From Paraspadella gotoi (lineage: Eukaryota; Animalia; Chaetognatha): a stretch of 64,000 nt of DNA. A program made the position numbers and the translations under genes. The stretch covers positions 2,973,256-3,037,255 of the forward strand of contig CM119265.1 of the NCBI GenBank assembly GCA_051294375.1. The letters run 5' to 3'. This document shows, one piece after another, positions 8,500 through 50,109 of the stretch. Within the stretch, counting starts at the first letter, position 1; every line of letters begins with the position of its first letter. The notes below the pieces were generated by a model. The model did not search any database. It had not been told where the DNA came from and worked only from the letters and a program-made list of their open reading frames with translations.

Positions 8500-11150
8500 T
8501 CAATATCTGTTCGGGATTTCGTAATGTCCCGCCCGATTGCCTCCTCTATCCAGTGCCGAACGATTGCCTCCTCTATCCAGTCCCACCCGATTGCCTCCTC
8601 TATCCTGTCCCGTTTCTCTTTCTGATTCTTCTTCCAAATTTGAAAATGCATGATTGATTCTCGCTGCTCGATCGATCGCCATCTGCCGATCAGCCATTCC
8701 AGACTCGTCAAACCCGCGCGCCTCGATCGATTTTTTATACGCGTACTTTTTCTTGGCCACAAACAGCGACACCGGCAGAAACAGTGCGAGAATGATCAGA
8801 GTTGCAAAAGCGAAGGCCATCCAAACGTAATCCATGTAATTGTTGTCCTCTTCCGCTTCCTCCTTCACAACGCTCTCGTCGGCCTCGCAAATGCGTCCAG
8901 GGAATCGAGGAATTCCAACGTCTCGGAATCCCTTCTTGCACCGACAGGTAAAGGATCCAATATTGTTGAGGCAGACCGCCTCGGCGGAGCAATCGTTGTC
9001 CGCCGGATCCTTACATTCGTCAAGGTCGCCAATGCTAGTAAATCGCTCGTCCAAAATCGGGGTCAAGTTGGAAAATTTCGTCGTGCTTAACTTCTCCGCC
9101 ATCCTTTTTTGTATTTTGTCAATTTCGTTTTGAGTCATTGGGTCTTTGTCATCAAACTCATCGGCGTCGTGAAAGATGAAGATCTCATAGAAAACGATTA
9201 TGCTTCCTGAAAAGATTCCCGTGATTTTCATTTTGAAATTGAGAAGAGGGTTCGCCGCTTGAAAAACGTTACTTAGGGTCTCGATTAGAGAAGCGCGACT
9301 TGCTGAGTTTTCATCTTTCAAGTCGGGCGTCAAAGTGTTGTTGAAGGTGATCATCGCACCCATTCGATCCCCGCCGGAACATTTTTCCGGGTCAGTCTTC
9401 GATGGTTCAAACCCTTTTTTACAATCGCACTCGTAGGATCCTGGAATGTTTCTGCAGACTTTGGCTGCGACGCTGGCGCCCTCTAAACAAGGATCTCGAT
9501 CGCCGAGTTCACATTCATTGACGTCTTCACACAGCGGCAAAGATCCATTCCATTTAGAGGCGGAACCTTCGACCTGCTCACATAAAACGGATTTTTCTGC
9601 GTCAGGATCCTGAAAAGAAAATCCTTCACCACACGTAAAAGCGCAGTGAGATCCGATGGTATGACCATTGCAGCTTACGGTGCCATTGGTCAAATGGGTA
9701 ATGGGGTCGCAATCAGAGGCAAGGAAAAGAGGCCCCAGGGAAACTTGTTTTTTAGCGACAACATTTTCTAAAATCGCCCTTCGACGACGAATCCTTTCAT
9801 TCAAACATCCTTGCTTGCAACGAGAATGCGGGTTGCTTGCCTCACACAGTAAAATTTCACAATGAATATGTATCATGTCATAGGCGTCTTGAGTCTTAAA
9901 TGCCTCCAAAGAGAAGCGTCTTTGGTTCGGATTTTCAGCGCTATAGCTTCGGTAAGTACTATCCTCTGGACAACCATTACGAATGAAATATAAATTTTTT
10001 GGCAGAGACTCATTATTTGAAATGGATGGCCAACAGTTTTCAAAGAAAACTTCCAGTTTTTCCGACAATGTGCTCGCTTCCAAAAAGATGAGTTCATTTA
10101 ACTTCACAGTTATTGGAGGATCGAGAGGAACAAGAAACCTCGAAGAAGCGAACATTCTGAGATCAATGGAGATAGTTCCGTATTCGTCAATGTAGGGAAG
10201 TTTCCAAGACGGATTTCCAAATGAAACACTCAGTAAAGTCTTTTTGTTGTACATACATCTGAGACCGACCATATTACTTATGTCCTTTGGTCTTATGATA
10301 AACGGTTGTTCCGTATCATGGCCCGGCAACGATAGAATATTTTCATAAATGATGTAATTCTCCGAAGAGTTGCTTTTTGTACCACATTGATCGGCTCGAA
10401 ATTCAACGAATAGGTTGTTAGAATCGAAGGGGGTCTCAACGAGCTGCAGACTGGCGCACGAACCGATACTAACGTAACCACTTATCTCGAGCAACTTGGG
10501 GAAAATGACTTTGAAAAGTGGATATCCGTCATAATCCTGCGTGCAGTTAATGCGGATTCCGATCAAATCCTCGCAGACTTTCTCTTCCAGTTCATCTCTG
10601 AGATCATTGAGCATGGCCGTGCCGTTGACTTGGTAGATTCTCTCTGGGTCGTTGGTGATTAGATTTAACTCGCTATATTCAACGCCGTTTCCAATGGCAA
10701 TGGCATAGATCATAATGTCATCATTTCTTGCTTTTTTTGATGGTTCACTCACATCGTCACCGCTTTGACCATCAGTTAGTACAACAATGATGCGAACCCT
10801 ATCCTCATCGTTTTCAAACTGCTCCACGCCTTTTGATATTGCTTGACCCGTATTAGTACTTCCACTGGGGTAAGGAATAGCCATGATCTTTTCAGCCATT
10901 TTTTTTTCATCTAAACCCGCGGAATTGTTAAAGGATAAGCTGACAGTGACACTACCGCTGTAGACTATGACAGCGACCCTACTATTTTGGCTGAAAGAAG
11001 CGGCCATGCTGGCTGTAAATTCAAGAGCTTGCTTAAAACCATTGACGGTTATGCTCCCACTTCCATCAATGATGAATACCAAGTCCATATTTCTCTCCCA
11101 TGCGCTGCATTTGAATCCATTTGTTACAGTTGTTACTAGTTCAGTGGGTG
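8500..11150 (-). CDS. Gene B terminal exon: vWA (intact MIDAS), ZP, Sushi, EGF-Ca, SEA, EGF-Ca, TM, cytoplasmic tail
   Basis: ORF 8500-11088 extends to an acceptor at 11151. DLVFIIDGSGS / GSTNTG / VLTDG; ZP RRFSLEAF..IHIHCEILLC..SRCKQGC then RIRRRR; SEA FSGSIIVFY; TM VWMAFAFATLIILALFLPVSLFV. Confidence 0.9.
8517..8610 (-). repeat. Coding 27-bp tandem repeat x3 (DRGGNR) in the gene B cytoplasmic tail
   Basis: cgattgcctcctctatcc occurs three times; translation QDRGGNRVGLDRGGNRSALDRGGNRAG. Confidence 0.9.
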
Positions 11151-11270
11151 CTGAAATAATTGTTTTTTTTTTTGTTTATTATTATTAGCCACTTTAAAAC
11201 TTAAAACTTAAAACAAACTTATTAGAAAGTTATAGATACTAATTATAAATAATTCTCATTCTTAATATAC

Positions 11271-12431: not shown

Positions 12432-15400
12432 TCAATCAGCCCTTGACTCACCAACGTGGTAAGCCCAATGAAGCTCGGTATGAACGGGATTATCCATTTT
12501 CGAGTAGTCTAACCCAATCTGCAGGTTATAGTCCATGCAATGAATGGTATACACGGAACCAGCTGGTATCGAGCTTGAATAGAAATGCAATCCGTTCCAG
12601 TCGTAAAAGCGAAAGATTTCCTTATCAAGTTCGTCAAAGAAGCTGGAATTACAAGCTCCTTCAACGACCGGGGCCAAGTCTGGACTTTGAAGACTGCGTG
12701 CAGCGTGGAGATCTTCGTCGATCAAACCATCGCAGTCGTTGTCTTCGCCGTCGCCATTTTTCCATAAATGTGGGGCGATGAGATAATCCACTGCGGGGAA
12801 TTAGAGAGTTCTTTAATTAATAAATATTATGCTAAAAAGGCGTTAAAATAGTAGGGAATAATCTGATTATTTCATCTCATTTTTTACTATTACTCCTTCC
12901 TTTATTCATTTTTTTACCATCTTTTATTTTACTTTATATTTATTTTTTTTACATTATGTTTTGTTAAATTTTAAATATTTTTCTTTATTCGCTATTATTC
13001 TTTTATCTCTAGCTTTTTACACCTTTTTGCTTTTTTTTCTCCTTCTTTTTATCTATTGTTTCTATTTTTCTGTTTCTCTTTCTTTTTTTTCTGTATTTTT
13101 TTCCTCCCTCTTTTCCTTTCTTTTCCTCCCTCTTTTCCTTTCTTTCCCTCCATCTTTTCCTTTCTTTTCTTCCCTCTTTTCCTTTCTTTTCCTCCCTCTT
13201 TTCCTTTCTTGTTCCTTCCCTCATTTCTTTTCTTTTCATCCCTCTTTTCCTTTCTTTTCCTCTTCCTTTCTTTCTTTTCCTTTCTTTTTCCTCCTCTTTT
13301 CCTTTCTTTTCCTCCTCTTTTCCTTTCTTTTCCTTTCTTTCCTCCTCTTTTTCTTTCTTTTCCTCCTCTTTTCCTTTTTTCCTCCCTATTTTCCTTTTCG
13401 TTCCTCCCTATTTTCTTTCTTTTCCTCCCTCTTTTCCTTTCTTTTCCTTTCTTTTCCTTTCTTTTCCTCCGTCTTTTTCTTTCTTTTCCTCCCTCTTTTC
13501 CTTTCTTTTCCTTTCTTTTCCTCCCCTATTTTCCTTTCTTTTCCTCCCTCTTTTCTTTCTTTTCCCCTATTTTCCTTTCTTTTCCTCCATCTTTTCCTTC
13601 TTTTTCCTCCCTCTTTCCTTTCTTCTCCCTTTTCCTCCCTCTTTTCCCTTCTCATTTCCTCCATTACCTCCACTTTTGTCCGCCGGAGTCTCGCATCCCG
13701 GCCGATATTCCGGCAATCTCCCGGCGGCGGAAAATTGCGCGAGGACGGTAGAGTGCGGCAGGCGACGTGAACGCCCTCGACGACGCTGAAGCAGCCGGAG
13801 ACTTGAAGGATGTTGACGCCAAAAGACGCAGACGGGGGAAGCGTGCTCCAGGTGGACGAGCCGATCGCCTGGGATGGAAGAAGAGAGGAAAGGAGAAAAA
13901 AGAGAAGTAGAGAGGAAAGTCGGAAGGAAAGTGAATAAAGAAAGATAATAAAAAAGTGATTAGGAAAAAAGAAGAGAGGGAAAAAAGAAAGAAGAGAGGA
14001 GAAGGAAAATGAGAGAAAGAAAGAAAAAAAAATAAATCGATTGTAAGAATGAAATCTACCACAAGCAGGTTTGATTTTGTGTTCCTATACTATTTGAATA
14101 AAATACTAGTAAAATATTTCATTTTTTTAAGAAAATTACCTTTCCGCACTTCGTATTTGAAGTTGACGTAATCTAAATGAGTCATCGAGGTCCAGTTTTG
14201 CGAGATTTCTCATGGTTGATGTAAAGTCCTTCCTACATATTTTTATATTCAACATTAAAATAGAAATAATCCGGCAGTATTTATCAGTCTCACATTAAAT
14301 ACCTATACAATCCTCTTTGATCACGATAGAGAGGACATAAAAATTGTCACTGTCCAACAAAACGTCATATTTGTAGGAAAATGAGGCTGTGGGTGGAAAC
14401 TGAACCCAATGAGTTAGAGATTTTGACCATATTTCGCCATAACGTGACACGGACTGGAGCACTTGATCTTTACAAAGCGCTGTCGCCTGGCGACGGTTCG
14501 GAAAGAGATAGCACTTTGGATCTCTCTGGATTCGACGCATAACAAATTTATCGTCCAGATGCAGACCTAAATAAACAAAAGAGTTTCAATTGTTCTGTTT
14601 ATTTGCTTTGCAACACATTCATTAAACAAAAATATTATCTATTGTCTATCAGAAATGTTAAATTAAACTACAAAATAAATATCATAACGCACATCGCGTT
14701 AATGTATTAGATTAAATATCTTAGTTAAAATCTACTTAAAGTTCCTTTTATTGGTTTTTTTTGTTAATGACAAGTCGCAAGAGATGGAAAAGTTTAGCTT
14801 TCGTTTTCAAAACGTGTCCAGGACAAATCAATTTTCTCCGCGAATCATAGTATTGAAAAATCTTTTTATTAAATCAATATAAAAAAATAAAAATATTATA
14901 CCATAAAGAATAGTTGCAAGGTTGATCGCGACAAATGACAAATAATTTCTACTCCACCATGAATCAATTCCACGATATGATCCTGGTGCCATAAATTTTT
15001 GCGGAAGAACTTGAAACGTAACCAGCAAGAGATTGCATGATAATTTCACCAAATAAGATTGAAATTTTGTAGACATTTGAATCCAAATCTGATTTAAAAA
15101 AAAAAGGTCATTGTTGTTATCATAAAAATAAAGGGAAACTGTCTCAGACACGGAAGTTACTTATTTTTCACATTTTCTTACCAGTAACATTTAAGGCGGC
15201 GTATTCAGAAGTACTGGTTGCGTTTGAATAACTCTCTCATTTCTTTTACAGATGTATTTGTTACTGGAATGAGACCATAACGCAAATTGTTAGCTGATAA
15301 AGCCCATGTGTTTCTTGGAATTGATATTTGTAGCCCTGTCATTTGTAACAGTTGTATTAATGATTTTTATGTTAATATAAGTTTTTACTACTTCTTAAAC

Positions 15401-16989
15401 CTGAACATCCATGGGAAGCAGATAAAGAAAGCCGTACTCCCCGGATTTGCTCTTGTAGTAAGCTAAGACCAAGATCTCTACAGGGGAGCTCAGTATAATG
15501 ATCAGGGTCCGTCCTCTGGTGAACTGCATTCGTTCATCCAAGTCGAAGTTGGATACCTCATCTATCATTGGCTGGAAAAGAAAATATTGTCACTTAGCTT
15601 TTACCACTGATGATGACTTAAAAAATAGGTCGAAATATTGGCAAAAAAATAACGTTTTTGTACTCGCGCACTGCCTCTCAATAGTGAAATTAGAATTAAT
15701 ACTTAAACTACTCACAGTGCATGTGATTACTTTAAAGAATTGTATCTATTTTTTAAAATAATAGATATCAATCAATTCTCGTTATGTAATAAATTTTGTA
15801 CATTACGCAGTACGCACCAACAGAATTTTTTGAAAATAATTCTCTATTCTGTTAAGGTGTATGAAATTTAATTGCAAAAATACTGGATTATTTTTTTTAT
15901 CGAGCCAGACGGAACCCTGGCCGCTATACTTAAAATTACTTCTTTGTGACGTAGTCGTCGTCGTCGTTGTCTCGTCGTGTCGTCGTCTGTCGTGCGTCAC
16001 GCTTTTTTATATAATAAACTACTACGCTTTTTATAGTTTCGGCTGGGATTTAGTTTTTTTAAATAAAAATAACTATGAATTACGATGAAATTTTTATAAA
16101 AGTGTGCGATCATAGTAAGTTATTTTAAAATAATGGTAATAGGATAGAACGAAATTAACTCATTGAAGTCTTATTGAAGCTGGTGTGGTGCCTGTCATTC
16201 GACTCTCATCCCAAAATTCTTGGGTTCTACATTTTGAACCAAAGCTCCGGAGACTGCTTATTAATTCATTTATTATTTATCATTAATTGACACCAATGTA
16301 TCTGTCTCTGTAGTAATAATCAATTGTATCAATTTATAACCATTACTTAACCACATCAACTTACACGTCACAGAGAAAATCTGCAACAATCCATCCATCT
16401 CTGTTGACCAAATGAAACGTTACAGTGACCAATTGGTTCGCATGCAACATGAACGTCCACAATTGATCGCAGAAACGCGGCACAAAATGTTCCGCCCCAA
16501 TAATTCCGACCGTTCCATGGCGTTGATCAACCGGTCCCGAGCAACGTGACTCGTCCAAAGTCGTTTTTTCTGCTGCCAGACCATTGAAGTAGAGTTTCAA
16601 TCGGATCTCTCTCCTCCCAATCATGAATCGATTCTTCGCAGGCGACTCAAGAAGTTTCGCTCGACGGCTCTCATCAAAACCCTGGCGCCAATCCGAGCCA
16701 AAAGGATGGTCCATTCTGCGCGGATCGAGGATCGAACCAGCGTCGCATGCAACTGGCGACGCAGGTCAGACCAACGGGCAAAAAACCGGGAAAGGGAATT
16801 ATTCTGGTAATCCATCGAATTTTGAGAGGATGTAAGGAACAATAAGAGGAGAGGGGCATGAGGTTCTTGCGGCGCCAAAGGAAGGATTCAAAGAGGGGAG
16901 ACCTTCGTCGATGAGGCCGTCGCAGTCGTCGTCGACGCCGTTTGCCGGGAAGGTAGCGGAATGATGAGGATCTTCAATGGTACATCTCT

Positions 16990-17034
<45 letters not shown>

Positions 17035-20000
17035 AAGAGATTTTGTCTCTTTGTGCTGCATATATAATTTTTAGAAATTTATTATTATACAAAAACAGTA
17101 TTGAAAATCAGAAAACATAAGAGTGTACAAAGAAAGAAAACGTATAGAAGNNNNNNNNNNNNNNNNNNNNNNNNNATTGCAAAAATAAATATTCATACGC
17201 ACATCGCGTTAATGTATTAGATTAAATATCTTAGTTAAAATCTACTTAAGTTCCTTTATTTGGTTTTATTTTGTTAATGACAAGTCGCAAGAGATGGAAA
17301 AGTTTAGCTTTCGTTTTCAAAACGTGTCCAGGACAAATCAATTTTCTCCGCGAATCATAGTATTGAAAAAATCTTTTTTATTAAATCAATAAAAAAAATA
17401 AAAATATTATACCATAAAGAATAGTTGCAAGGTTGATCGCGACAAATGACAAATATTTCTAGCTCCACCATGAATCAATTCCACGATATGATCCTGGTGC
17501 CATAAATTTTGCGGAAAAACTTGAAACGTAACCAGCAAGAGATTGCAATGATAATTTCACCAAATAAGATTGAAATTTTGTAGACATTTGAATCCAAATC
17601 TGATTTTAAAAAAAAAAGGTCATTGTTGTTATCATAAAAATAAAGGGAAACTGTCTCAGACACGGAAGTTACTTTATTTTTCACTTTTCTTACCAGTAAC
17701 ATTTAAGGCGGCGTATTCAGAAGTACTGGTTGCGTTTGATAACTACTCATTTCTTTTACAGATGTATTTGTTACTGGAATGAGACCATAACGCAAATTGT
17801 TAGCGAAGCCCATGTGTTTCTTGGAATTGATATTTGTACCCTGTCATTTGTAACAGTTGTATTAATGATTTTTATGTTAATATAAGTTTTTACTAGTTCT
17901 TAAACCTGAACATCCATGGGAAGCAGATAAAGAAAGCCGTACTCCCCGGATTTGCTCTTGTAGTAAGCTAAGACCAAGATCTCTACAGGGGAGCTCAGTA
18001 TAATGATCAAGGGTCCGTCCTCTGGTGAACTGCATTCGTTCATCCAAGTGAAGTTGGATACCTCATCTATCATTGGCTGGAAAAGGAAAATATTGTCACT
18101 TAGCCTTTACCACTGATGATGACTTAAAAATAGGTCGAAATATTTGGCAAAAAAATAACGTTTTTGTACTCGCACTGCCTCTCAATAGTGAAATTAGAAT
18201 TAATACTTAAACTACTCACAGTGCATGTGATTACTTTTAAAGAATTGTATCTATTTTTTTTTAAATAATAGATATCAATCAATCTCGTTATGTAATAAAT
18301 NNNNNNNNNNCATTTCCTCCATTACCTCCACTTTTGTCCGCCGGAGTCTCGCATCCCCGCCGATATTCCGGCAATCTCCCGGCGGCGGAAAATTGCGCGA
18401 GGACGGTAGAGTTACGGCAGGCGACGTGAACGCCCTCGACGACGCTGAAGCAGCCGGAGACTTGAAGGATGTTGACGCCAAAGACGCAGACGGGGGAAGC
18501 GTGCTCCAGGTGGACGAGCCGATCGCCTGGGATGGAAGAAGAGAAGGAAAGGAGAAAAAGAGAAGTCGAGAGGAAAGTCGGAAGGAAAGTGAATAAAGAA
18601 AGATAATAAAAAAGTGATTAGGAAAAAAGAAGAGGAGGGAAAAAAGAGAAGAAGAGAGGAGAAGGAAAATGAGAGAAAGAAAGAAAAAGAAAATAAATCG
18701 ATTGTAAGAATGAAATCTACCACAAGCAGGTTTGATTTTGTGTTCCTATACTATTTGAATAAAATACTAGTAAAATATTTCACTTTTTTCAAGAAAATTA
18801 CCTTTCCGCACTTCGTATTTGAAGTTGACGTAATCTAAATGAGTCATCGAGGTCCAGTTTTGCGAGATTTTCTCATGGTTGATGTAAAGTCCTTCCTACA
18901 TATTTTTATATTCAACATTAAAATAGAAAATATCCGCAGTATTTATCAGTCTCACATTCAAATACCTTACAATCCTCTTTGATCACGATAGAGAGGACAT
19001 AAAAATTGTCACTGTCCAACAAAACGTCATATTTGTAGGAAAATGAGGCTGTGGGTGGAAACTGAACCCAATGAGTTAGAGATTTTGACCAATATTTCGC
19101 CATAACGTGACACGGACTGGAGCACTTGATCTTTACAAAGCGGCTGTCGCCTGGCGACGGTTCGGAAAGAGATAGCACTTAGCGATTCTCTCGGATTCGA
19201 CGCATCAACAAAATTTATCGTTCCAGATGCAGACCAATATAAACAAAAGAGTTATATTTCATTCTACTTTACAATTATGTTCCATTTTTGTTTATTGTTT
19301 TGCGACCCATCTTAAACAAAAATGTATCTATTGTCTATGCAGAAATGTTAAAGTAATCCGGTTATTGCAAAATAAATATCATACGCACATCGCGTTAATG
19401 TATTAGATTAAATATCTTAGTTAAAATCTACTTAATTGTTCCTTATTGGTTTTATTTTGTTAATGACAAGTCGCAAGAGATGAAAAGTTTAGCTTTCGTT
19501 TTCAAAACGTGTCCAGGACAAATCAATTTTCTCCGCGAATCATAGTATTGAAAAAATTCTTTTATTAAAATCAATATAAAAAAAATAAAATATTATACCA
19601 TAAAGAATAGTTGCAAGGTTGATCGCGACAAATGACAAAATATTTCTAGTCCACCAGAATCAATTCCACGATATGATCCTGGTGCCATAAATTTTGCGGA
19701 AAAACTTGAAACGTAACCAGCAAGAGATTTGCAAGATGATTTCACAAATAAGATTGAAATTTTGTAGACATTTGAATCCAAATCTGATTTTAAAAAAAAA
19801 GGTCATTGTTGTTATCATAAAAATAAGGGAAACTGTCTCAGACACGGAAGTTACTTTATTTTTCACTTTTCTTACCAGTAACATTTAAGGCGGCGTATTC
19901 AGAAGTACTGGTTGCGTTTGATAACTCACTCATTTCTTTTACAGATGTATTTGTTACTGGAATGAGACCGTAACGCAAATTGTTAGCGAAGCCCATGTGT

Positions 20001-21668
20001 TTCTTGGAATTGTATTTTGACGCCTGTCATTTTGTAACAGTTGTAATTAAATGATTTTTATGTAATATAAGTTTTTACTATTTCTTAACCTGTAACATCC
20101 CATGGAGCAATGAGAGAAGAGCCGTACTCCCCGGATTTGTCTTGCGTAGTAAGCTAAGACCAATCTCTACACAGGGAGTCCAGTATAATGATCAAGGGTC
20201 CGTCCTCTGGTGAACTGCATTCGTTCATCCAACGTGAAGTTGGATACCTCATCTATCATTGGCTGGAAAAGGAAATATTGTCACTTAGCCTTTACCACTG
20301 ATGATGACTTAAAAATAGGTCGAAATATTTGGCAAAAAAATAACGTTTTGTACTCGCCACTGCCTGCTCAATAGTGAAATTAGAATTAATACTTAATACT
20401 ACTTCACCAGTGCATGTGATTACTTTTAAAGAATTGTATCTATTTTTTTAAATAATAGATATCAATCAATCTCGTTTAGTAATAAATTTTGTACATTACG
20501 CAGTACGCACCAACAGAATTTTTTGAAAATAATTCTCTTATTCTGTTTAAGGTGTATGAAATTTAATTGCAAAAATACTGGAATTATTTTTTTTATCGAG
20601 CCAGGACCCGGCGAAGCTGGTCCTGGCCCTATAACCATTCAAAATTACTTCTTTGTGACGTAGTCGTCGTCGTCGTTGTCGTCGGCGTCACGCTTTTTTA
20701 TATAAAAACTACTACGCTTTTATAGTTTCGGCTGGGATTTAGTTTTTTTTAAATAAAAATAACTATGAATTACGATGAATTTTTATAAAAGTGTGCGATC
20801 ATAGTAAGTTATTTTAAATAATGGTAATAGGATAGAACGAAATTACTCATTGAAGTCTTTATTGAAGCTGGTGTGGTGGCCTGTCATTCGACTCTCATCC
20901 CAAAATTCTTGGGTTCTACATTTTGAACCAAAGCTCCGGAGACTGCTTATTAATTCATTTATTATTTATCATTAATTGACACCAATTATTCTGTCTCTGT
21001 AGTAATAATCAATTTGTATCATTTATAACCATTACTTAACCACAATCAACTTACAGTCACAGAGAAATCTGCAACAATCCATCCATCTCTGTTGACCAAT
21101 GAAACGTTCACAGTGACCAATTGGTTCGCATGCAACATGACGTCCACAATCTGATCGCAGAAAATCGCGGCAACAAATGTCCGCCCCCAATAATCCGACC
21201 GTTCCATGGCGTTGATCAACGGTCCCGAGCAACGTGACTCGTCCAAAGTCGTTTCTGCTGCCAGACCATTGAAGTAGAGTTCAATCGGATCTCTCTCCTC
21301 CCAATCATGAATCGATTCTTCAGACAGGCGGACCAAGAAGTTTCGCTCGACGCCTTCATCAAAAACCCTGGCGCAACCGAGCTCAAAGGATCGGTCCATT
21401 TCTGCGGGATCGAGGATCGAACCAGCGTCGATGCAACTGGCGACGCAGGTCAGACCAACGGGCAAAAAACCGGGAAGGGAATTATTCTGGTAATCGCATC
21501 GAATTTTGAGAGGATTGAAGGAACAATAAGAGGAGAGGGGCATGAGGTCTTGCGGCGCGAAGGAAGGATTCAAAGAGGGGAGATCTTCGTCGATGAGGCC
21601 GTCGCAGTCGTCGTCGACGCCGTTGCCGGGAAGGTAGCGGGAATGATGAGGATCTTCATGGTACATCT
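12432..21668 (-). CDS. Gene B middle exons: DxDCDGLIDE (Cu-binding_MopE-like) motifs and a second IgGFc-binding-like module, present in duplicated and frameshifted copies
   Basis: DNDCDGLIDED (~12710-12745) and DDDCDGLIDE (~16905-16940, ~21580-21620). Exons at ~13668-13868, 14303-14567, 14830-15337, 15400-15572 and 16375-16988 recur at 18326-21668. CSSPCHV..FPPTASFSYKYDVLLD..FYVLSIVI parallels the 24130-24383 exon. Boundaries are approximate. Confidence 0.6.
13080..13652. repeat. Polypyrimidine low-complexity tract (ttttcctccctc-like units)
   Basis: Almost pure C/T for ~570 bp. Confidence 0.9.
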
Positions 21669-21670
21669 CT

Positions 21671-21710
<40 letters not shown>

Positions 21711-21830
21711 TTTAAAGACGATTTTGTCTCTTTTGCGGCATATATATTTTTTAAAATTATTATTAATACCAAAAACAGTATTGACAAAATCAGAAACAGT
21801 AAGAGTGTAAAAGACAAGAAAACGGTAAAG
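13653..21830. repeat. Near-identical direct duplication/triplication separated by N-gaps
   Basis: 13653-17149 matches 18311-21830, and 14667-15794 matches 17176-18300. Differences are mostly 1-bp indels. Confidence 0.9.
15601..15645 (+). ncRNA. Degenerate minimal hammerhead-like motif (copies at ~18107-18150 and ~20292-20335)
   Basis: ttacca CTGATGA t GACTT aaaaat AGGTC GAAA tat(t) tggcaa: core and stem II present, stem III truncated. Confidence 0.35.
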
Positions 21831-22069
21831 AAGTAAAAACTAAACTATTAAAATTCAACAAAAACAAAAGCCACTAAGTTTTAAAATGGAACCATTAATA
21901 AAATGTTATGAACAAGTAACGTTCAAGAACTTTCAAAGATCAGATGTCAAAATCATAAAAACCAGAAACAGTAAAAAACAAAAAACGTCAAGTTGATAAA
22001 ATGTTCAAAAATAATGCGTAAAAACAAAAACAAAAAATATGAAGGAAAAAAATTAAAAAATATGAGAAC

Positions 22070-22587: not shown

Positions 22588-25500
22588 CTTCGATCACGGG
22601 TTCGCAATTGAAGATGTTTTTCGGAATTCTTCCGGCGCCATAGAATCGGTCGAGGATGGTCGAGTTTATGCAGGCAAAGCGGCGCCCAGTGACGCCGTCG
22701 TCGCAGCCCTCGTTCTGGAAGACGTTTACGCCAAAAACGGCGCGCGGGTTGGCGTGGCGAAGATGTAAGACGGAGGTGCCTGGCGTTAAGAGCGAAAGAA
22801 TTATATGTACCTTTTTCTTCGAAGTAAGATATTATTTCATTCATTTTATGGTGGGATGTATGTATGTATGTAAGCGTTTTATCAGCCTAAAAAGTTTGTT
22901 TAAAATTTATATGATCTTATGGCAACAGCCGGGTTGCCTGTGATGCCCATTGGATGGGGCATCTCACTGTTGGCTTTGGGGGCTTCCGACCCTCAGTGAC
23001 GCCTCAGTCACTGGCGCGGTTACCCTAGGACGGTCTCCGCTTTGCCAACGCTAGAGGGAAGTCGTTTAGGACTGTGGATGGAAACGCTACGCCTGGGATG
23101 GTGTCGTCCCCCTCTGAGCCAATGGATTTGGCTGACGGATGGTGAACGTGAGGCGGTGTGAATATACCGCCAACAGGATCCCCGGGCCAAGACATCACTC
23201 AGGTTCCTCAGCCTGAGAGGTGCACTTTTTACCAATAGTGGGAGAAGAGAGAGAGAGAGGCGCGAGTTTGTGGGGGCATAGCGTTTTGTCCGTAGCGTAC
23301 CCAGGGCATAGGCGTTTGTCGTAGCGTACCCGAGAAGTTGGCAGGGCATAGGCGTTTTCGTTCGAGCCGGAACTCGGTGCGTACCCTAGAAGGTTCGGTG
23401 TTTGATAGTAGGGCTCACGCAACTTATGGCAACAGCCGGGTTGCCTGTGATGCCATTGGATGGGGCATCTCACTGTTGGCTTTGGGGCTTCGACCCTCAG
23501 TGACGCCTCCAGTCACTGGCGCGGTTACCCTAGGACGGTCTCGCTTTGCCAACGCAGAGGGAAGTCGTTAGGACTGTGGATGGAACACTACGCCTGGATG
23601 GTGTGTTCCCCTCTGAGCCAATGGATTTGGCTGATGGATGGTGAACGTGAGGCGGTGTGAATATACCGCCACAATATTTTGTTTTTTTCTAATTTCAGAA
23701 TTTATGATTATATACATTTATTCAGTACGTTTGTTCGATAAACAAATTGTTGTTTCTTTCATAATTAATTACTAATTATTTGGCTTAACAGAAAAACTTT
23801 TTTACCAATATCGATTTCATGTTTGATGTTGACATAGTCGGTATTGTTTATAATCAATTCCATTGAATCTTCGATAAGGTGGCCATTTGCGTAAATTCCT
23901 CTCTGGAAATTTGTTAATTAACAGTAGGGAGTCCTAATCAGCAATCACTCTCTCTCTCTCTCTCTCTCTCTCTTGCTCTCTCTCTTAAAATAATATTTTT
24001 ATAACACAGATATTGTAGAATTTTATCAGGTTTATTTAAAATTAAAGTTAGACTTTCATATTATTCGGTAATGTTAAATTTGTTCTTAATTTTTGAACTA
24101 GAACCTGAATTATTCCCCAAATCGCTCACCTTGTCCTTAGCTAAAACGACGATAGAGACGACGTAAAATTCTCCCGGGTCCAAAACGATGTCGTACTCGT
24201 TCGCAAAAGCATCGATTGGAGAATGGAAGGAAAACCAATAAGAAAAATCACTGTCCCGGGTGAGAACTAGGCAAGGACTAGAACAATCGACCCACAACCA
24301 CTGATGTTGAATAGAAGATAAATGGGCCACATGCAAGCTTTCCGACGCGCCCACCATGAACGTTTCTCCGGTGGTCAAGGATCTGAATTTGGCGAGATAT
24401 ACATAATATGTATATATATATACTATTACAATACAACGTAGTATGCATCTCTGAAAGTACACAGAGGAATTCAATCTTTCCATCAGAGACATTCTGTCAG
24501 AGACAAAGCGTGAGAAAAGTGTTAAATTTAATCGGGTATTCACCTCACGGTGACGTTGCAATCCAAATCTGGGCAGGATACAACCACGTTCACCGAGTGC
24601 CAGAGAAACTTATCTTTTTCCACATCCAAACTGACAGCGATTTCGACCAGATGGAATTGATGCCATCTGTCGACGGGGAGAACTTGAAGTTGACGAGTCA
24701 TGGAATCGAATTGGACAACGATCGACGAAGAAGAAGCTTTGATCATCACAATCGGCAAATTCGGTGGAATTTCTGGAATGAGACGGAACGAGGCCCCCAA
24801 AAAATGAGATTTAGTTTTAGGTTCCCCCCTGGGACAATAGAATGTTTCGTTATAGTCGTGGTACAAAGGCTTAAGTTTACCAAGGTACCGGGTTAAATTA
24901 CTTTTACCCATTCTAGGACCAGGACTCATTCCTTTGCTGGGGAATTTACCGAGTCGTTACTGCGTGATAAAAGTTTCCCCATTTCGGATTAAAATAAGAA
25001 TTTAGTATGTTTTCATGTTTAAGCATTAGGGTTTAAATTAGGGATTTGGTTGGAAATTTTGTTAAGGATTAGGGCTAGGGATTTGGGGATAATGTTAGCG
25101 ATTTGGGTTAGGGATTAAGAATTAGGGTTAGGGACAAGGTTAAGGTTAGGTATTAGTATTAAGGATTAGACTCTGATATTGGTTTAAGTATTTAGTAAAA
25201 TATTAAAATTAAAATTAATGGAATCAGAATCAGAAATAGGGTGCTTTCAGAGCCCAAGAAAGAAGCAACTTAAGAGAACACAGATTCAGGGAGATTGTCT
25301 TTGCATTTCTCCCAAAGTCTCACTTTTCACTTGCTCACTCCCCTTAAACTCACCAACAGGTATTTTTTTTATTTCACCAGCGACGAGGTTTTCCTCCCAC
25401 GAATCTTCCCAATTGGAAACACTCACATTCACAGTCACAGATTCAATGGCGACGATGCGAATATCAGCATTTGTGAAATAACTCGTACCCTGTTTTAAAT

Positions 25501-26657: not shown

Positions 26658-27294
26658 TTGTTTTGATAATTTACTATAAATATTTATATGCTCATAACTC
26701 TCGTAATACTTTATTTATATCAGAAATATATATACTGTATTATGAAACCTTCTTTTCGCCTCTGCAATCATATGGCCAGAAGCTACTGAGCCTTAAAGTT
26801 TATTATTTGACAGTCAGGATTTAAAGCTGCCTCACTTCTGTCCGTACTTTAGCCTCGTCTAAATAGCTGACCAGGCTAAATCATCTCGTTTCATCCGTGC
26901 GTCCAGGGTTCAATCCCCGGGTATAGCGGTTCTGACTTAAATGTTATGGAGCCGGTCTAAACATGCCAGTGATAGGAGGCAGTCACTGAGGGTCCACAGC
27001 CCCTACGCCAGTTGGTGAGATAACCCGAGCCCTGAGTAACGCAAGTAATCCTCCCTTTACCCTAATATAACATATTGTCTACAAGTTTCAAATGATTCGA
27101 ACACGAGGAAAGAAAGTTAATCAGGCGCAACACCTTTCCTCATTTACTACTACGTCGCTATGCAAATAGCAATGTCGTTTGAGACTAATTCAGCCCATTT
27201 AATTGTTTCATTTTAAGTAATATACGAACTTACCTTGGGCGAAGGAGTCCGCTGAGAGGACGGCGATGACGACAAAGAAGATTCGTGATAACAT
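22588..27294 (-). CDS. Gene B 5' exons: signal peptide and FCGBP-type IgGFc-binding-like N-terminal domain
   Basis: Exons 27234-27294 (MLSRIFFVVIAVLSADSFAQ), ~26449-26608 (PDYWGRDF, one homopolymer frameshift), 26115-26276, 25354-25489 (GTSYF), ~24544-24931 (LQVLPVDRW), 24130-24383, ~23805-23902 and ~22588-22779 (HANPRAVFGVNVF). Splice phases are mostly consistent. Domain identity is from motif resemblance only. Confidence 0.65.
22969..23049 (-). ncRNA. Twister ribozyme, P5 permutation (3' LTR copy)
   Basis: GTTGGC aaa GCGG a GA CCG tcctaggg TAA CCGC GC CAGTGAC..GTCACTG A GGG T CGG AA GC CCC caaa GCCAAC. Confidence 0.75.
23475..23553 (-). ncRNA. Twister ribozyme, P5 permutation (5' LTR copy; one G missing in L4, possibly a sequencing error)
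   Basis: Same motif as 27543-27623, except L4 reads TCGAAGC. Confidence 0.65.
24965..25270. mobile_element. MITE-like element with degenerate TTAGGG-rich interior
   Basis: ccccatttc at the left, gaaatagggtg at the right, ttaggg/ttaagg-rich middle; related to 28160-28730 and 31097-31450. Confidence 0.4.
26855..27065 (+). mobile_element. tRNA-derived SINE-like element carrying a probably inactivated twister module at 26932-27011
   Basis: B-box GGTTCAATCCC at 26907-26917, then ATGT TA TGG agccggtc TAA ACAT GC CAGTGAT..GTCACTG A GGG T CCA CA GC CCC; tail ctttacccta; homologous to 53109-53260 (-). Confidence 0.6.
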
Positions 27295-27420
27295 TTTCTT
27301 ACTTTCTTGTCTAAATAGTGTCAATATGAATTACTTCAATACGTAATAATAATGATTAAAAGAAGTTTAGTTTAGGATTTGATGACAGATTACGCTCACA
27401 GACGAGATTTAATAGTATAT

Positions 27421-27677
27421 TGTGGCGGTATATTCACACCGCCTCTCGTCCACCATCATTCAGCCAAATCCATTGGCTCAGAGGGGGAACACACCATCCC
27501 AGGCGTAGTGTTCCATCCACAGTCCTAACGACTTCCCTCTGCGTTGGCAAAGCGAGACCGTCCTAGGGTAACCGCGCCAGTGACAGGAGGCGTCACTGAG
27601 GGTCGGAAGCCCCCAAAGCCAACAGTGAGATGCCCCATCCCAATGGGCATCACAGGCAACCCGGCTGTTGCCATAAG
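27421..27677 (+). mobile_element. Solo LTR of the twister-bearing element, with ATAT target-site duplication
   Basis: Reverse complement of 23423-23673. ATAT at 27417-27420 and 27678-27681; the reconstructed empty site AGT-ATAT-ACT is palindromic. Confidence 0.85.
27543..27623 (+). ncRNA. Twister ribozyme, P5 permutation; predicted cleavage between U27569 and A27570
   Basis: P5 GTTGGC/GCCAAC; P2 CCGC/GCGA (one C-A mismatch); conserved GA at 27556-57; T1 CGG/CCG; UAA; T2 GC/GC; P3 CAGTGAC/GTCACTG; P4 GGG/CCC; L4 U-CGG-AA-GC. Confidence 0.8.
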
Positions 27678-28159
27678 ATATACTTTAGAGATAGATAATA
27701 ATAATGAAAATAGTAATGAGATAGTAATGGATGAGTTAACAGACGGCGACAAAAAAGACAACGATTACAATGAATACGATGATTACAATTCTCGCTCGAA
27801 AACGACGCCGTTTGTATCCAAAAAGGTCAGTTTGTATCCAAAAAGGTCAGTTCCACATCCGGGATTCTCAAACTCTTAATTTCGGTCCAAACATTTTCAA
27901 AATATTAATTAAATCTTCTTTTCGTCTCATTCACAAAACGAACTAATTCATCAATACCAGTTTTTCCAGTAAAATAACAAAAATTGTTAAGCCACTTATT
28001 ATCCGTTGTAACACGTAAAGTACGACGACAACGACAACAACAACAACAACAACAACCAAAAAAACCGATGACGACATCAGGCATAAGCGGCATGAAAGAC
28101 GACGACGACGATTCGAAACACCGACCTTTAATGGAATCGTTCGCTCAATTAAGAAAAAA

Positions 28160-33900: not shown

Positions 33901-36900
33901 ATTTGTATATATTTAAAATAATTAAAAATGCTTTCAAAGATTGAGTTGGCAAGACAGAGAATTCATAGATATAGACTTTGAGACCGAGTTCCATGTATTC
34001 ATTCCTCTTTGGAGAAACAATTTTTGAAAAGGATTAAGTTGAAATCGCAAAAAAGTTGAAAAAAAAGATGACTTTAATTACATTTATTACTATGTATCAA
34101 TATTGCTACGTTTTCGTTTTAAAAATTGTTTTTGGCTCTAAATTCGAAAAGTCGTAACTCGAATGAGTCTAAAGTTTAAAGTCATCCGTTCGTTTTGGAA
34201 AATTAAACTGTTTCTTTTTTTTTACAAATTTTTTTTATTTTAGTTTTGAAAACATTTATTTCGGTCGCCATGACGACGGTGAACAGCAGATTTTCTCCAA
34301 GCCTAATTAAAAACGGAAAAAAAGCTTTAATAATCAGAGAAATTTTCCTTTTTCAATTTTTTTTTGGAAAAAGAAAAAGAAATCAAACTTATACAATAAT
34401 NNNNNNNNNNNNNNNNNNNNNNNNNAGAGAGAGATTCCTATTCCATCCTTCCTCCTATCTTTCCCGCCCGTCCCCCGCCCGCCCCTGTGAATTTTAATTT
34501 TTCTCCTTCCTCCCTTCCCTTTTTCCTTCTTCCCCCTTACTCCCCCGCCCGCCCTGCTAATTCTATTCTCCTTCCTCCCCTCCTTTTTTCTTCTTTCCCC
34601 CTTCCGCCCCCCCCGCTGCTAACCTTCTATTCTCCTTCCTCCACTCATCCTTTTTCCTCTCCCCCAGCGCCCGCCCGCCCCTGCAATTCTATTCTCTTCC
34701 TTCTTCCCCCTGCCCCGCCCGCGCCCCTGCGAATTTTATTCTCTTCTCCTCTCCTTTTCTTCTTCCCCTCCCCCACCGCCCGCCCCTGCTAACTCTATTC
34801 TCCTTCCTCTCCCTCTCCTTTTTTTCTTCTTCCCCCCTCCCCCGCCCGCCCCTGCTAATTCTATCTCTTCCTCCCTCCTCCTTTTTTCCTTTTCCCCCTC
34901 CCCCGCCCGCCCTGCGAATTTTATTCTCCTCCTCCCTCTCCTTTTTCCCTTCTTCCCCTCCCCTCCGCGATAAAAGTTGGGACGAGGAGGTAGGTTCGTC
35001 CGCAACCGACTATCCCTCCTCCACCCAGCGATCCGAAGCGCCTTCGTCGGCCCGGAAAAAAATCTTGGAGGAATCGAGCGGCCGCCGGGGTTCATTCCCG
35101 CGGGAAGAAGTATAGAAGGTTAAGGGAATGACTCATCGGTTTGATGAATGCAGAATGAATGAATAATGAAATGAATGAATAAATATATCATCAATCATTC
35201 ATAACTAGAATTCGCCAACACAACAAATTACACCAATGGTTATTTGAGTCACTAAAACATTTATTTGCAAGGTAGATCATCATTAATTTAATCAACATAT
35301 TTAACCGTAAACTAATGATAATCGGCAACAAGTCCATCGTCAACAACTTATAACCAAATTAGATAAAGGCATTAACGATATATAATGGGGATATTGTGGC
35401 AATCGTTTCTAAACTATTTGAGTATTTTTAAATAAATTTGGTAGCCGATCGATAGGAATTTAAATACTATCTATATGCAAAAAATATTTCATAAAATCGG
35501 ATAATCCGTTTCAAAAGTATGGCAATAAAAACAGATGCGAAATCGAGCGCTTCAATAGATCAGCTTTCACTTAAAATCGAAGCTCGTTTTTGATCCAATA
35601 AGGATTTGAACTACTGTAGTATGAGCTTTAAAACGATGATAGGCGATTATGCGCGAACCGGGCCCATAAGAGAAAAATAGAATAGCGAAGCCCGAAAAAA
35701 AGGAATCCTTACAAAATTAATCAACAAATACATAATTAATAACAGAATAAAAAAGGGAAAAAGACAAGAGAGCCAAAGAAGTAAAAATTGAAAAGTATAA
35801 TTGACTGATCTCACCAGCAAAACTAACTATTACACTAACTCAATTTAAATATCGTTAATTCAAGATTAAGAATTCACTATCGTCACTTCACGATTAAAAT
35901 TTTTCATTTTTTTGAATCAGTTTAATTTTAATGATAACAGATTTAATATGATAGCAATAAAACTATAAATTAAAAGATAATGATTGATAATGGTAAGTAA
36001 ATTGATGCAATGAATAAAATTAATTAAACTAATGATGAGACGCATAGTTTAATATCTAAAATTTGTCATATCTGAATAGGCTTAATTTTATTATGAAACA
36101 AGTTTGAGCAAACAATGTCGGATTTTGAATAAGAATAATTTAGCCAGTAATCAGTTAAAAAGTATGCAAGTTGAAAAAAAGATATGCAAGTTGAAAAAGA
36201 TAATGCAAGTTGAAAAAGATGTGCGCAAGTTGAAAAAGATATGCAAGTGGAAAAAAGTATGCCAATTGAAAAAGTATGCAAGTTGAAAAACAAAAATATG
36301 CATACTTTGAAAAAAGTATGCATACTTTGAAAAAAGTATGCATACTTTGAAAAAAGTTATGGCATACTTTGAAAAAGTATGCCATAATTGGAAAAAAAGT
36401 AGCATAATTGGAAAAAGTATGCATACCTTTGAAAAAAAGTATGCATACTTTGAAAAAAGTTAAATGCAAATTTTAAAAAAAGTAAATGCATACTTCAAAA
36501 AAGTATGCATATTTAAAAAAGTATGCATACTTCAAAAAAGTTTGGCATACTTTGAAAAAAAGTATGCATACTTTGAAAAAATGTATGCATAATTGGAAAA
36601 AAGTATGCATAATTAGAAAAAAGTATGCATACTTTTGAAAAAAGTATGCAATATTTTAAAAAAAGTATGCAATACTTCAAAAAAGTATGCATACTTTGAA
36701 AAAAAGTATGGATATTTTAAAAAAGTATGCATACTTCAAAAAAGTATGCATACTTTGAAAAAGTATGCAAACTTTAAAAAAAGTATGCATACTTTGAAAA
36801 AGTATGCATACTTGAAAAAAAGTATGCATACTTTTTCAGAAGGTATGCATACTTTTTTTGAAGTATGCAATACTTTTTTTAAAAATACGCATACTTTTTT

Positions 36901-39900
36901 CAAAGTCACGTCACGTCAATGAATGACTTATGCATCGCATCATGAATGATTATCATCCGATGTCAATGAAGGACTATCATCGCAATCAATGAATGGATTA
37001 TCAATCGCACAAATGAATGACTATCATCGCATCCATCATTTGGCTATCATCGCATCAAATCCTTCGGTTATCTTCGCATCAATATTTGGTATCATCGCAT
37101 CAATAATTTGGTTATCATTAAAAGTAGGCTCGATCCTATTGCTTTTAGATTTTATGAACGTTTTGTCACTATCACATAACAATATTAATGTCTCTTTCAA
37201 GAGATAAGATAAAGAGACTAACAAGGGAAAACGACGCCTAAGAAACGCCCAAATATCACAGCGTGAATTCAAAACATTTATACAGACTAACGTTCTAGAA
37301 ACGTAAAAATACGGTAAAGCCATGTTGAAATATGGTATTTATCTGGCCCGGATCGCGCATGATGCAAATGCTTATTTTTAATTGATGTCCTCATGGATAA
37401 CCTACGTCAACCATTTTCAATACAGACCGGAACGCGCTTAAATAAGCTTTTAGCGTGGCAAATACTTGATATCCTTTCTATTTTGTCTAAATTTAATAAT
37501 AAACTCTCTAAAATTTACCGGCCGGCTCTACCTGAAAACAGATAGTAAAAACAATACAGTTTCTTTCGATGGTCTTAAGAACAAAAAAAAATTGTAGGCT
37601 TGACTAATGCAGTTTTCACATAAAAAAACCAGTTCATTTGAATTGCTTTATCAAGCAATTCAAGATTGCAAGAATTTAAACTTTTTCTTTTTTTTTTATC
37701 TAGTAGAGAAGACAATAAGCTAATCCGAAACGCGTACTGATATGTATGATTGTTTCTATTTTACAAAAGATCAAGCAGGTTTTTTGGGAAAAGGGAAAAA
37801 ACGGTCTGACCAGTTTCATTAAATACCATTTTTGGGCATGATAAAATGGTATTTCGATCGCGCTCTACTGCGTTGGCTTCCCAAGACGCCAAGGCTTTCC
37901 GAAATCTACCATATTGATATAATTTATATGGGCCTTGACTATGCAGTTTTGAATAGAAAGTGAAATATAGGAATGCTTGATCGAACTTCGATTCGAACGA
38001 TGCGATGCACGATAATCAATCCATGGACCCATTCTTTCCTATTCCACCAACCTGCCTTTCTCCCCAAACCCCGCCCAAAGGTTCAAACCAATCCCCCCGC
38101 GCCTGCCCACTCCACCACTCCGGTCAATTGAGATTCCGCTCGAAATCACTCGCGAGTCAGAGACGGGCGATGATGGACGCGGCGCAGGGCGGCGCCGGAC
38201 GGGCGGCGCCTGCGTGAGGGAGGCGGGTCTGCGCGGCCTGGCGAGGCGGAGCTCGATTATTACAGGTGCGGAGAAAGGAGCGGGAACGTGTTGAGGAATA
38301 AATGGAGAATATCCGGAATTAAGTCAAGAAAAGGCAATGATTTTTTTATTGAATATTTTAGTAATACGCGTTTTAATTCGCATTTAAACGTTAGTGGGAA
38401 CGGACGAACTACCCGACCGCAATGAAAATAAAAAAATCCGGCTATCTATTCCCTAAAAGCGGAGGGTCCAAATTTTTGTTTCTTTAATCCTGATCTTATT
38501 TTAACCCAGAATATTTAATTATAAATAAATTACCAAAAACAAAACCACAAATCCCTAACCCCTAAAACCCTTAGTATACTCAACTTATTTCCAGTTTTTT
38601 TTCCTTTCTTTTTTTTTCTTTTTTTTTAGTGGGAGAGGAATAGGGAGGGAGTTTGGAAGCGGAGGGAATATCGGCGTTGTTTGTCCGAAACTCCCAGCCG
38701 TTTTAAAGGAATATAATTAGGTTGAGGGTTAAATATTAGGGTAAAGAGTTAAAGATTAAATACTAAGGTTAGGGGGTTAGGGATTGTGGTTTGTTTTTTG
38801 GTAATTTATTATTTAAATATTTGGGTTAAAATTAAAGAATCAGGGATTAAAGAACAAAAATGTGGCCGTTTAGAAATAGATAGCCGGATTTTTTTAAATT
38901 TTCATTTGGCGGTCCGGTTAGTCAATTGTCCTTTCCATCTTTACACTCTTACCGCTAATATTTACCTCAACTATATTATTCCTTTATTAAATCGGTGGAG
39001 TTTCGATCAACGCGATATATCCACTCGCCAGAACTCTCTCCCCTATTCCTCTCGCCTAAAAAAAACGACAAAAAGGAAAGGCCGAGAAGGGAAAAGGGAG
39101 GCTGCCACCGGTGCAAGACCGCGCATCCTTCCACGAAGAGCGCTCACTCCGCTAGAGTCATTCGCGCCAGAGTCGGGGGAAAGCGGCGCTACAGTTCCGC
39201 CTCCACGTCGGCCTCCTCGAGGTAGAGGGCGGGTGTCTGCGCCCGCGCGGAGGCGGAGAGCGTGGAGGAAGAAAGAGAGAAAGGAGAGAGGAGAGGAGAG
39301 AAGAAGAATCGAGGAGGAAAGAGCTGGAGAGGAAGGATCTCGTCGATCGATTCGATCCATGAAATCGGGAAGAAAGACGCCATCTTTGTTTTGGTTGGAC
39401 GGCGAAGGGAAGGAGGAGGGAGGAGGAGGAGGAGGGGGATGAAAATGTCGGGAGGAAGATGATGATGAGGCCGAAGAGTAGGAAAGGGGAGAAGAGAGGT
39501 AAAAATAGGAGAGAGGGTGAGGAGGGGGGGAGGTATTGTGAATATTATTTATTATTTTTTATCATTAGTTTTTTTTTCGTTCGTTGATCGATTTGGATTC
39601 GCGAAAATGTCATTTTTAACTCCCGGAATATTTTTTAAATGCAGAAAATGTAATTTAAACTTGCAAAAATGTCATTTCAACTTGCGAAATGTCATTTAAA
39701 GTCCCGAAATATTATTTAACACGCAGAATATGTAATTTAGCTTGCAAAACGTCATTTCAACTCCAAAAATTACATTTTTATTTGCGAAATATCGGTAGCA
39801 GTTCACTTTAAACCCGGTATAGCCATTTAGACGTATTATACTGTTACAGCCAATGGTTTATTCTCTAGCTATTTTTTTTTTAGACGCCTAGAAACTTCAG

Positions 39901-50052: not shown

Positions 50053-50109
<57 letters not shown>

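Follow-up and report, generated by a model that had tools for sequence, protein, structure and literature searches.

The window analysed here, i.e., the whole stretch of 64,000 nt, contains GT-AG introns and codes for VWA-ZP-EGF proteins and a fucosyltransferase, the best matches of the latter being about 36-43% identical and coming from several invertebrate groups. Two adjacent long, intron-free ORFs of the minus strand (2339-6202 and 8500-11175) encode VWA-ZP-Sushi-EGF membrane proteins. Gene B, also on the minus strand, has a signal-peptide-like first coding exon at 27234-27294; no Pfam family was found for the ORFs of its exons. One contig of run X9 (see below) exactly matches its exon at 22588-22780, which adjoins an intron harbouring an element with two long terminal repeats (LTRs). 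A single LTR begins at 27421, and the 127 bp that a sequence-only reading of this locus had counted between it and the gene B start codon (MLSRIFFVVIAVLSADSFAQ on the minus strand) are confirmed. This solo LTR lies on the plus strand, pointing away from gene B.

Four runs of assembled contigs (X1, X4, X5 and X9) were aligned to positions 26750-28000. Nearly all of the contigs on this stretch (12,658 in X1, 8,552 in X4 and 3,045 in X5) fall on repeats. The summed depth is 0.3-2 million on the LTR versus 12-177 on its flanks, values which overcount overlapping contigs and do not give a copy number. At least 198 distinct flank-type right ends were found in one run, which indicates a family of hundreds of copies or more. 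Run X9, which we guess to be RNA, contains many repeat contigs. Its depth is higher 3' of the predicted twister cut, an excess to which no weight is given, since the depth of contigs informs neither on expression level nor on RNA ends or circles. Two of its contigs, of 1,998 and 3,737 nt, carry diverged LTR parts and are possibly derived from an autonomous helper or from host transcripts.

The solo LTR is real and young, but was mis-bounded in the sequence-only reading, which had given it TG...AAG ends and a perfect ATAT duplication within a palindromic AGT-ATAT-ACT target. In run X1, 96 + 102 contigs pass from ...GCCATA into AT-rich flank (the next letters being C, or A without a following G, so that the flank starts C-TAT or A-TAT), and 26 contigs continue from ...GCCATA into AG and a sequence resembling a primer-binding site (PBS). 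The right end of the family is thus ...GCCATA, and AG is the spacer ahead of the PBS. The left contig ends of the repeat mirror this right-end pattern. The site before insertion is given by one X5 contig, which fuses position 27418 to 27678 and reads AGT-ATATAT-ACT instead of the palindrome proposed. The net insertion is therefore 259 bp (255 + 4) and not 261, which sets the LTR (TGT...ATA, 255 bp) at 27421-27675, with ATAT on its left (27417-27420) and AGAT on its right (27676-27679), where the AG of the LTR-PBS spacer replaces the first two target bases. ATAT does stand at both 27417-27420 and 27678-27681, but the duplication around the 257 bp first delimited is not perfect (ATAT/AGAT). A 255-bp LTR and a 4-bp duplication with AGAT as its right copy fit all three lines of evidence, i.e., the contig ends, the empty allele and the right junction of the two-LTR element. 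For the solo site alone, a change in the length of the AT run since insertion may alternatively account for the observations.

The same picture holds for the family, whose duplications were judged from contig ends and not copy by copy. ATAT is the commonest 4-mer at both repeat ends among the contigs at the two-LTR site, and the insertion ends are compatible with TA-centred 4-mers. The integrase-type insertion initially proposed is supported, with a TA-centred target; the ends of other copies fit a 4-bp duplication, and they are ATA and not AAG. The spacer AG is found at the right junction of both young insertions of the window (27676-27679 and 22914-22917), and most family ends lack it.

The insertion is polymorphic, as the empty X5 contig demonstrates. 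Judging from record lengths, a 28-letter overhang in X1 and a 30-letter overhang in X4 would match the same empty allele, and the solo allele is thus missing at full depth from three DNA samples, directly in X5 and by this deduction in X1 and X4. It follows that the solo LTR is not a fixed, domesticated part of the gene B promoter. The promoter effect first suggested is so far unsupported; any effect on gene B would be a possibility at the level of the allele, not a function.

The window has three near-identical LTR copies, of which two enclose a stretch of 250 bp, as well as two older relatives bearing a twister. An older copy, from a related high-copy subfamily, lies at 26834-27045 on the plus strand, in intron 1 of gene B. 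It contains a twister ribozyme fold with different P2 and T1 pairs and without the G of loop L1, a loss which, according to the contigs, is private to this copy and not a trait of its subfamily. A decayed third relative, at 53109-53270 on the minus strand, retains a twister core and is cut by an assembly gap.

The two LTR copies that flank 250 bp belong to a 756-bp element at 22918-23673 on the minus strand, which lies in an intron of gene B, in sense with this gene, in an indel-rich part of the assembly. This element is 3.7 kb from the solo LTR, and comparing the window with itself confirms that the two form an inverted pair. Both of its LTRs are about 95% identical to the solo LTR, which they match at 23673-23423 and 23172-22916: the 5' LTR (23425-23673) shares 244 of 249 aligned bases with it, and the 3' LTR (22918-23174) ends in the right junction AG-AT. 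They differ from each other by 5 substitutions and 10 single-base gaps, most of which are absent from the reads, so that the gaps are likely assembly errors. The internal region (23175-23424, 250 bp) is non-coding, the two overlapping ORFs tested having no match in Pfam, and opens with the AG spacer and a tRNA-Trp-type PBS (23411-23424), which carries extra letters in the window copy. As polypurine tract (PPT) it has just a short GGGGA before the 3' LTR, in an error-prone stretch. Many contigs share parts of this region, namely its PBS and PPT sides and a repeated motif, and in one X4 contig an LTR end is followed by a PBS variant, 36 letters and the repeated motif. Among the contigs listed, none spans the internal region, where 23236-23299 is almost uncovered; direct LTRs around a short non-coding region are thus seen whole in one copy only. 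The repeated motif, a short sequence at 23300-23335, has a very high copy number and is arranged in tandem in other copies of the element; it is a candidate packaging or dimerisation signal.

This second site is also empty in X1 and X4, in a comparison that covered one LTR and one flank. Flank contigs match up to 22915 without a gap and continue with about 296 letters unlike the LTR. The element ends AG-ATCA, and the X1 and X4 contigs of the empty allele have the C of this junction, again without a gap.

The solo LTR had been described as tiled with hairpins, and selection for a compact, structured RNA had been suggested. All six hairpins are exact reverse complements where they had been placed. 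Three of them, together with an enclosing stem and a 4-bp hairpin at 27521-27533, make up a 5' cluster (27424-27540), and two others lie near the 3' end (27629-27672). The solo element folds at -94.8 kcal/mol, with a z-score of -3.67 (1 of 200 shuffles folds equally well), its minus strand reaches -2.52, and none of 30 GC-matched segments of the window (out of 39 available) attains -3. The variants listed for the family of the solo LTR avoid the stems: 2 of 136 paired positions are variable versus 16 of 119 unpaired ones (Fisher p 0.0003, or 0.006 if three further unlisted variants were all in stems), and both stem variants retain a G-U pair. The twister core has 1 variable site in 74 versus 15 in 122 for the 5' part, again among the variants listed. 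Selection on RNA structure is thus supported, as family variants sit in loops.

The twister fold proposed for the solo LTR is supported by a complete order of elements at 27543-27623 and by covariation. Compared with a consensus taken from the Rfam models and Table 1 of PMC8501958, the sequence can be read as a twister open at P5 (P5-permuted), in the order P2, L1 GA and T1, P1, UAA, GC, P3, P4 and closing P5, which agrees with that table as well as with the P1 core in Rfam. The model consists of P5 (27543-48/27618-23, 6 bp), P2 (27552-54/27573-75), the L1 GA (27556-57), the T1 pseudoknot (27558-60/27604-06), a P1 of 2 bp (27561-62/27567-68), the UAA (27569-71), the T2 pseudoknot (27576-77/27609-10), P3 (27578-84/27592-98) and P4 (27600-02/27611-13), whose loop is GUCGGAAGC. 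The conserved loops UAA, GC, GUNNNNAGCC and GA are all present in the correct order, and cleavage is predicted between 27569 and 27570. P3, P4 and P5 can all pair, P1 has only its 2 bp, and P2 forms 3 of 4 pairs, with a C-A mismatch beside the active-site loop.

Five copies from three subfamilies, of which three are nearly identical, were available for covariation. Double-sided changes affect 7 of 28 pairs, two of the four in P2 and two of the three in T1 being among them, and 89.8% of cells pair versus 23-40% in slid controls. All three T1 pairs form, two with double changes, and T2 is invariant. Both partners of one T1 pair of the 26.9-kb relative (26947 and 26996) moreover differ jointly between the reads and the window copy. 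No variant falls on the unpaired catalytic-loop positions among those listed for the solo LTR family. A twister descriptor, written after the sequence had been seen, has two matches in the 64 kb, the solo LTR and the 26.9-kb copy, and none in 100,000 shuffled LTRs; both LTRs of the intronic element escape it owing to their indels. A pattern of the twister stems has three matches in the window and none in metagenome or viral contigs.

The Rfam scores of this fold are weak. Scanning the window with Rfam yielded no twister or hammerhead match at gathering level. The twister-P1 model scores 13.5 bits in the solo LTR and 19.4 bits at 26954 (E 3.2 and 2.2), where the gathering score is 67.2, and the twister-P5 model does not match. 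If only nested pairs are allowed, the probabilities of P1 and P4 are near 0 and that of P2 is 0.02-0.38, and forcing the nested twister helices (with P4 one base off) costs 9.5 kcal/mol. Altogether, the modelled fold quite likely cuts its own RNA at 27569^27570.

Upstream of the ribozyme, the solo LTR has an A-box-like (27474-27485) and a B-box-like (27510-27518) motif, each with one mismatch to the A/B-box consensus. Boxes as good are found in 44 of 3000 shuffles for the solo LTR, in 5 of 3000 for the 26.9-kb relative (A box at 26864 and a perfect B box at 26908, plus strand) and in 309 of 3000 for the 53-kb relative, the last not being significant. The boxes of the solo LTR lack the YGG and GGTTC of Helenus elements, and neither ARAGORN nor Rfam finds a tRNA match. 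TTTT is absent from the LTR, as it is from 1235 of 2000 shuffles, so that its absence is not significant. These boxes might be weak Pol III-like motifs.

Several element classes do not agree with this structure. An errantivirus with AGT...ACT ends was rejected, as the letters flanking TG...TA differ from copy to copy and the usual errantivirus primers do not fit the PBS. Direct LTRs, a PBS and the 4-bp gain argue against a tyrosine-recombinase (DIRS/Ngaro) element. Two LTRs, a PBS and the lack of a tail exclude a SINE, and a unit made of direct repeats around a PBS excludes a MITE or DNA transposon.

The closest agreement is with the CsRn1 clade of Gypsy elements. According to PMC2582038, CsRn1-like elements have TGT...AAA or TGT...ATA termini, a tRNA-Trp PBS reading TGGTGA(G/C)CCCG(T/A) and 4-bp duplications. 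The chaetognath element shares with PwRn1 and AgCR the TGT...ATA termini, the first 10 letters of the PBS and the 4-bp duplication (PMC2582038), the assignment to tRNA-Trp being a match to the published motif and not to a host tRNA-Trp gene. It differs from them by its TA-centred target, no preference having been found for CsRn1 elements, and by being non-coding, whereas they possess a gag-pol with a CHCC Gag (PMC2582038). As it encodes nothing recognisable, it is at most a dependent of the clade and not a member. No autonomous partner was seen, and no report of CsRn1 together with a ribozyme was found in the papers searched.

The layout is reminiscent of plant LTR retrozymes, which, according to PMC4918200, are likewise non-coding, with two LTRs, a self-cleaving ribozyme motif in each LTR, a 4-bp duplication, a PBS adjoining the 5' LTR, solo LTRs and a presumed Gypsy helper, and which form RNA circles. 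The plant elements have type III hammerheads and a Met PBS, while the chaetognath one, in an animal host, has a twister open at P5 and a Trp-type PBS; it is also smaller (a 255-bp LTR and a unit of about 505 nt, compared to 600-1000 nt in plants), carries Pol III-like boxes unlike them, and its cleavage and circles are predictions (PMC4918200). Because Rfam matches no hammerhead in it and a twister fold stands in its place, it is not a strict LTR retrozyme: it would work like one, but is outside the class by the hammerhead criterion. As far as the sources available go, LTR retrozymes are mainly from plants with type III hammerheads, animal retrozymes are without LTR, PBS and PPT, retroelement twisters are assigned to RTE/Perere elements, and one review refers to insect elements, as yet unpublished, that bear type III hammerheads.

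Other ribozyme-bearing animal elements are less similar, as far as they are described in the available parts of the sources. The Schistosoma Perere-3 RTE twister and its T-variant (PMC8501958) share with the chaetognath element a twister core in a retroelement and a short or weak P1. These twisters are nevertheless of the P1 type, with one per non-LTR element, at its 5' end, whereas here the twister is open at P5 and inside the LTR (PMC8501958), hence present at both element ends. Metazoan non-LTR retrozymes (PMC7229834; bioRxiv 10.64898/2026.07.22.740005) are also animal, non-coding and ribozyme-bearing, with proposed circular intermediates, but they are tandem repeats with type I hammerheads and without LTR, PBS or PPT, tied to Penelope-like elements. 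We found no twister-bearing LTR element in the literature outside subscription journals and Repbase entries, nor in the available parts of PMC6765202, PMC5680766, PMC10085705 and bioRxiv 2022.07.19.500677.

A further relationship is with Helenus/TRIMp3 (PMC10886601), short TRIMs of animals which, in the portion available, have A/B-box motifs in the LTR, a 4-bp duplication, a Gypsy-type PBS and a size range that includes ours. At 756 bp, with a 4-bp duplication and a Gypsy-type PBS, the chaetognath element agrees with the Helenus definition of a TRIM below about 1.3 kb. The boxes of Helenus are tRNA-derived and its B box is followed by a T-rich stretch and the LTR end, while the boxes of the chaetognath subfamily of the solo LTR are eroded, without any tRNA similarity found, and are followed by about 155 nt with the twister (PMC10886601). 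The main text of PMC10886601 mentions ribozymes in a reference only, and in its available part no ribozyme is reported in Helenus. Helenus-2_SyJa and Helenus-2_SyUm, from gall wasps, are the only Trp-PBS families that a term search found in the available part of its supplement (PMC10886601 DataS1.fa). By eye, the B box of each of their LTRs (Helenus-2_SyJa-LTR and Helenus-2_SyUm-LTR) is immediately followed by a complete hammerhead of type III, the loops of which are complementary (PMC10886601). No hammerhead was seen, by eye and term search, in the other animal entries of that part of the supplement, in which line wraps may hide matches. The gall-wasp Helenus-2 LTRs are probably insect LTR retrozymes.

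We consider, with somewhat more belief than doubt, that the solo LTR derives from a high-copy, non-coding and polymorphic mini-element, whose twister is likely self-cutting, whose RNA of about 505 nt is likely circularised and whose helper is of the CsRn1 type. The steps following transcription are modelled here on published plant retrozymes. (i) Transcription would start in the 5' LTR and run through the element, perhaps by Pol III via the A/B boxes upstream of the ribozyme, a step which seems to us as apt to be wrong as right. (ii) According to the fold model, the twisters in both LTRs would cut, releasing an RNA of about 505 nt that ends in a 5'-OH and a cyclic phosphate. (iii) By analogy with plant retrozymes, a host ligase would rather probably close this RNA into a circle. 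Ordinary LTR reverse transcription depends on a terminal redundancy, which is lost when both LTRs are cut, so that circle ligation would restore the template. (iv) Priming by tRNA-Trp and integration would very probably be carried out by a CsRn1-type reverse transcriptase and integrase, (v) the integrase inserting the cDNA at TA-centred 4-mers. (vi) The solo copy would be the product of a recombination between LTRs or of a short cDNA, and the AG at its right junction would be a 2-base cDNA overhang left unremoved and fixed in gap repair, the chances of these two holding together being about even. Alternatively, an AG junction of identical sequence would result if the end were left unprocessed and joined with a narrower stagger.

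The twister could instead serve an ordinary TRIM, perhaps Pol III-driven and Helenus-like, with a linear RNA: it would trim read-through or form the RNA end, uncut transcripts would be the templates, and circles would be unneeded. The weak P1 and P2 could slow cleavage, and the RNA of the unit is not unusually structured: 503 of the 505 nt from one cut site to the other, folded in the indel-rich copy, are no more stable than their shuffles (z -1.04). There are also precedents in the available parts of the literature, as twisters at RTE 5' ends are trimming devices (PMC8501958) and some animal TRIMs have internal Pol III promoters without any ribozyme having been reported in them (PMC10886601). 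A ribozyme at both ends would however remove the terminal redundancy, the twister core is conserved across subfamilies and among copies, and plant elements of the same layout make circles (PMC4918200, available part). We regard this alternative as rather unlikely.

It is improbable that the family is an autonomous, full-length CsRn1-type Gypsy with a twister in its own LTR, of which the 756-bp copy would be a one-off internal deletion. A single short two-LTR copy is seen whole, internal cover is patchy, and the X9 contig of 3,737 nt starts in the LTR, with a further 3.6 kb of unseen sequence behind it, all of which would suit such an element. Against it, the PBS side, internal motif and PPT side of the short region recur in many contigs, and the X4 contig joins LTR end, PBS variant, 36 letters and repeated motif. 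Furthermore, as the short copy is itself a polymorphic insertion, it has likely moved as such. A twister-like part devoid of activity, captured along with tRNA-like boxes from the head of a SINE or RTE and keeping its structure for packaging or stability only, is very improbable. Sub-threshold Rfam scores, the P2 C-A mismatch and the one relative without the L1 G speak for it, but the pseudoknot pairs covary, the catalytic-loop positions are free of variants among those listed, and the L1 G loss is private to the 26.9-kb copy.

An animal LTR element with a twister, as in the circularised mini-element that we favour, would break two rules, namely that LTR retrozymes are plant elements with type III hammerheads and that retroelement twisters are found at RTE 5' ends. 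One broader possibility, which we put forward tentatively and with more doubt than belief, is that of an animal LTR-retrozyme class, Pol III-driven, tRNA-Trp-primed and riding CsRn1-type Gypsy machinery via RNA circles, in which the place right behind the B box would be taken by an interchangeable ribozyme, a P5 twister in the present family and a type III hammerhead in Helenus-2 of gall wasps. An animal LTR element with a twister would also give twisters a testable natural role in making genomic RNA circles, and would show that ribozyme classes can be exchanged within one retroelement design. Given the abundance and polymorphism of the family, a single species suffices for testing cleavage, circles, promoter type and helper. 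The wasp hammerheads further suggest that curated TRIM collections could contain other unnoticed cases.

Further repeats lie elsewhere in the window. Downstream of gene B, 13653-21833 contains tandem duplications of about 3.5 kb and 1.1 kb, with 92-96% identity and DDDCDGLIDE-type motifs. An inverted repeat at 46707-53008 comprises 1,072 nt at 100% identity, among nested duplications at 38-52 kb, and is either a recent duplication or an assembly artefact. Finally, a self-complementary unit (AAAAAAGTATGCATACTTTG-like) of about 20 bp is repeated in an array at 36157-36906.
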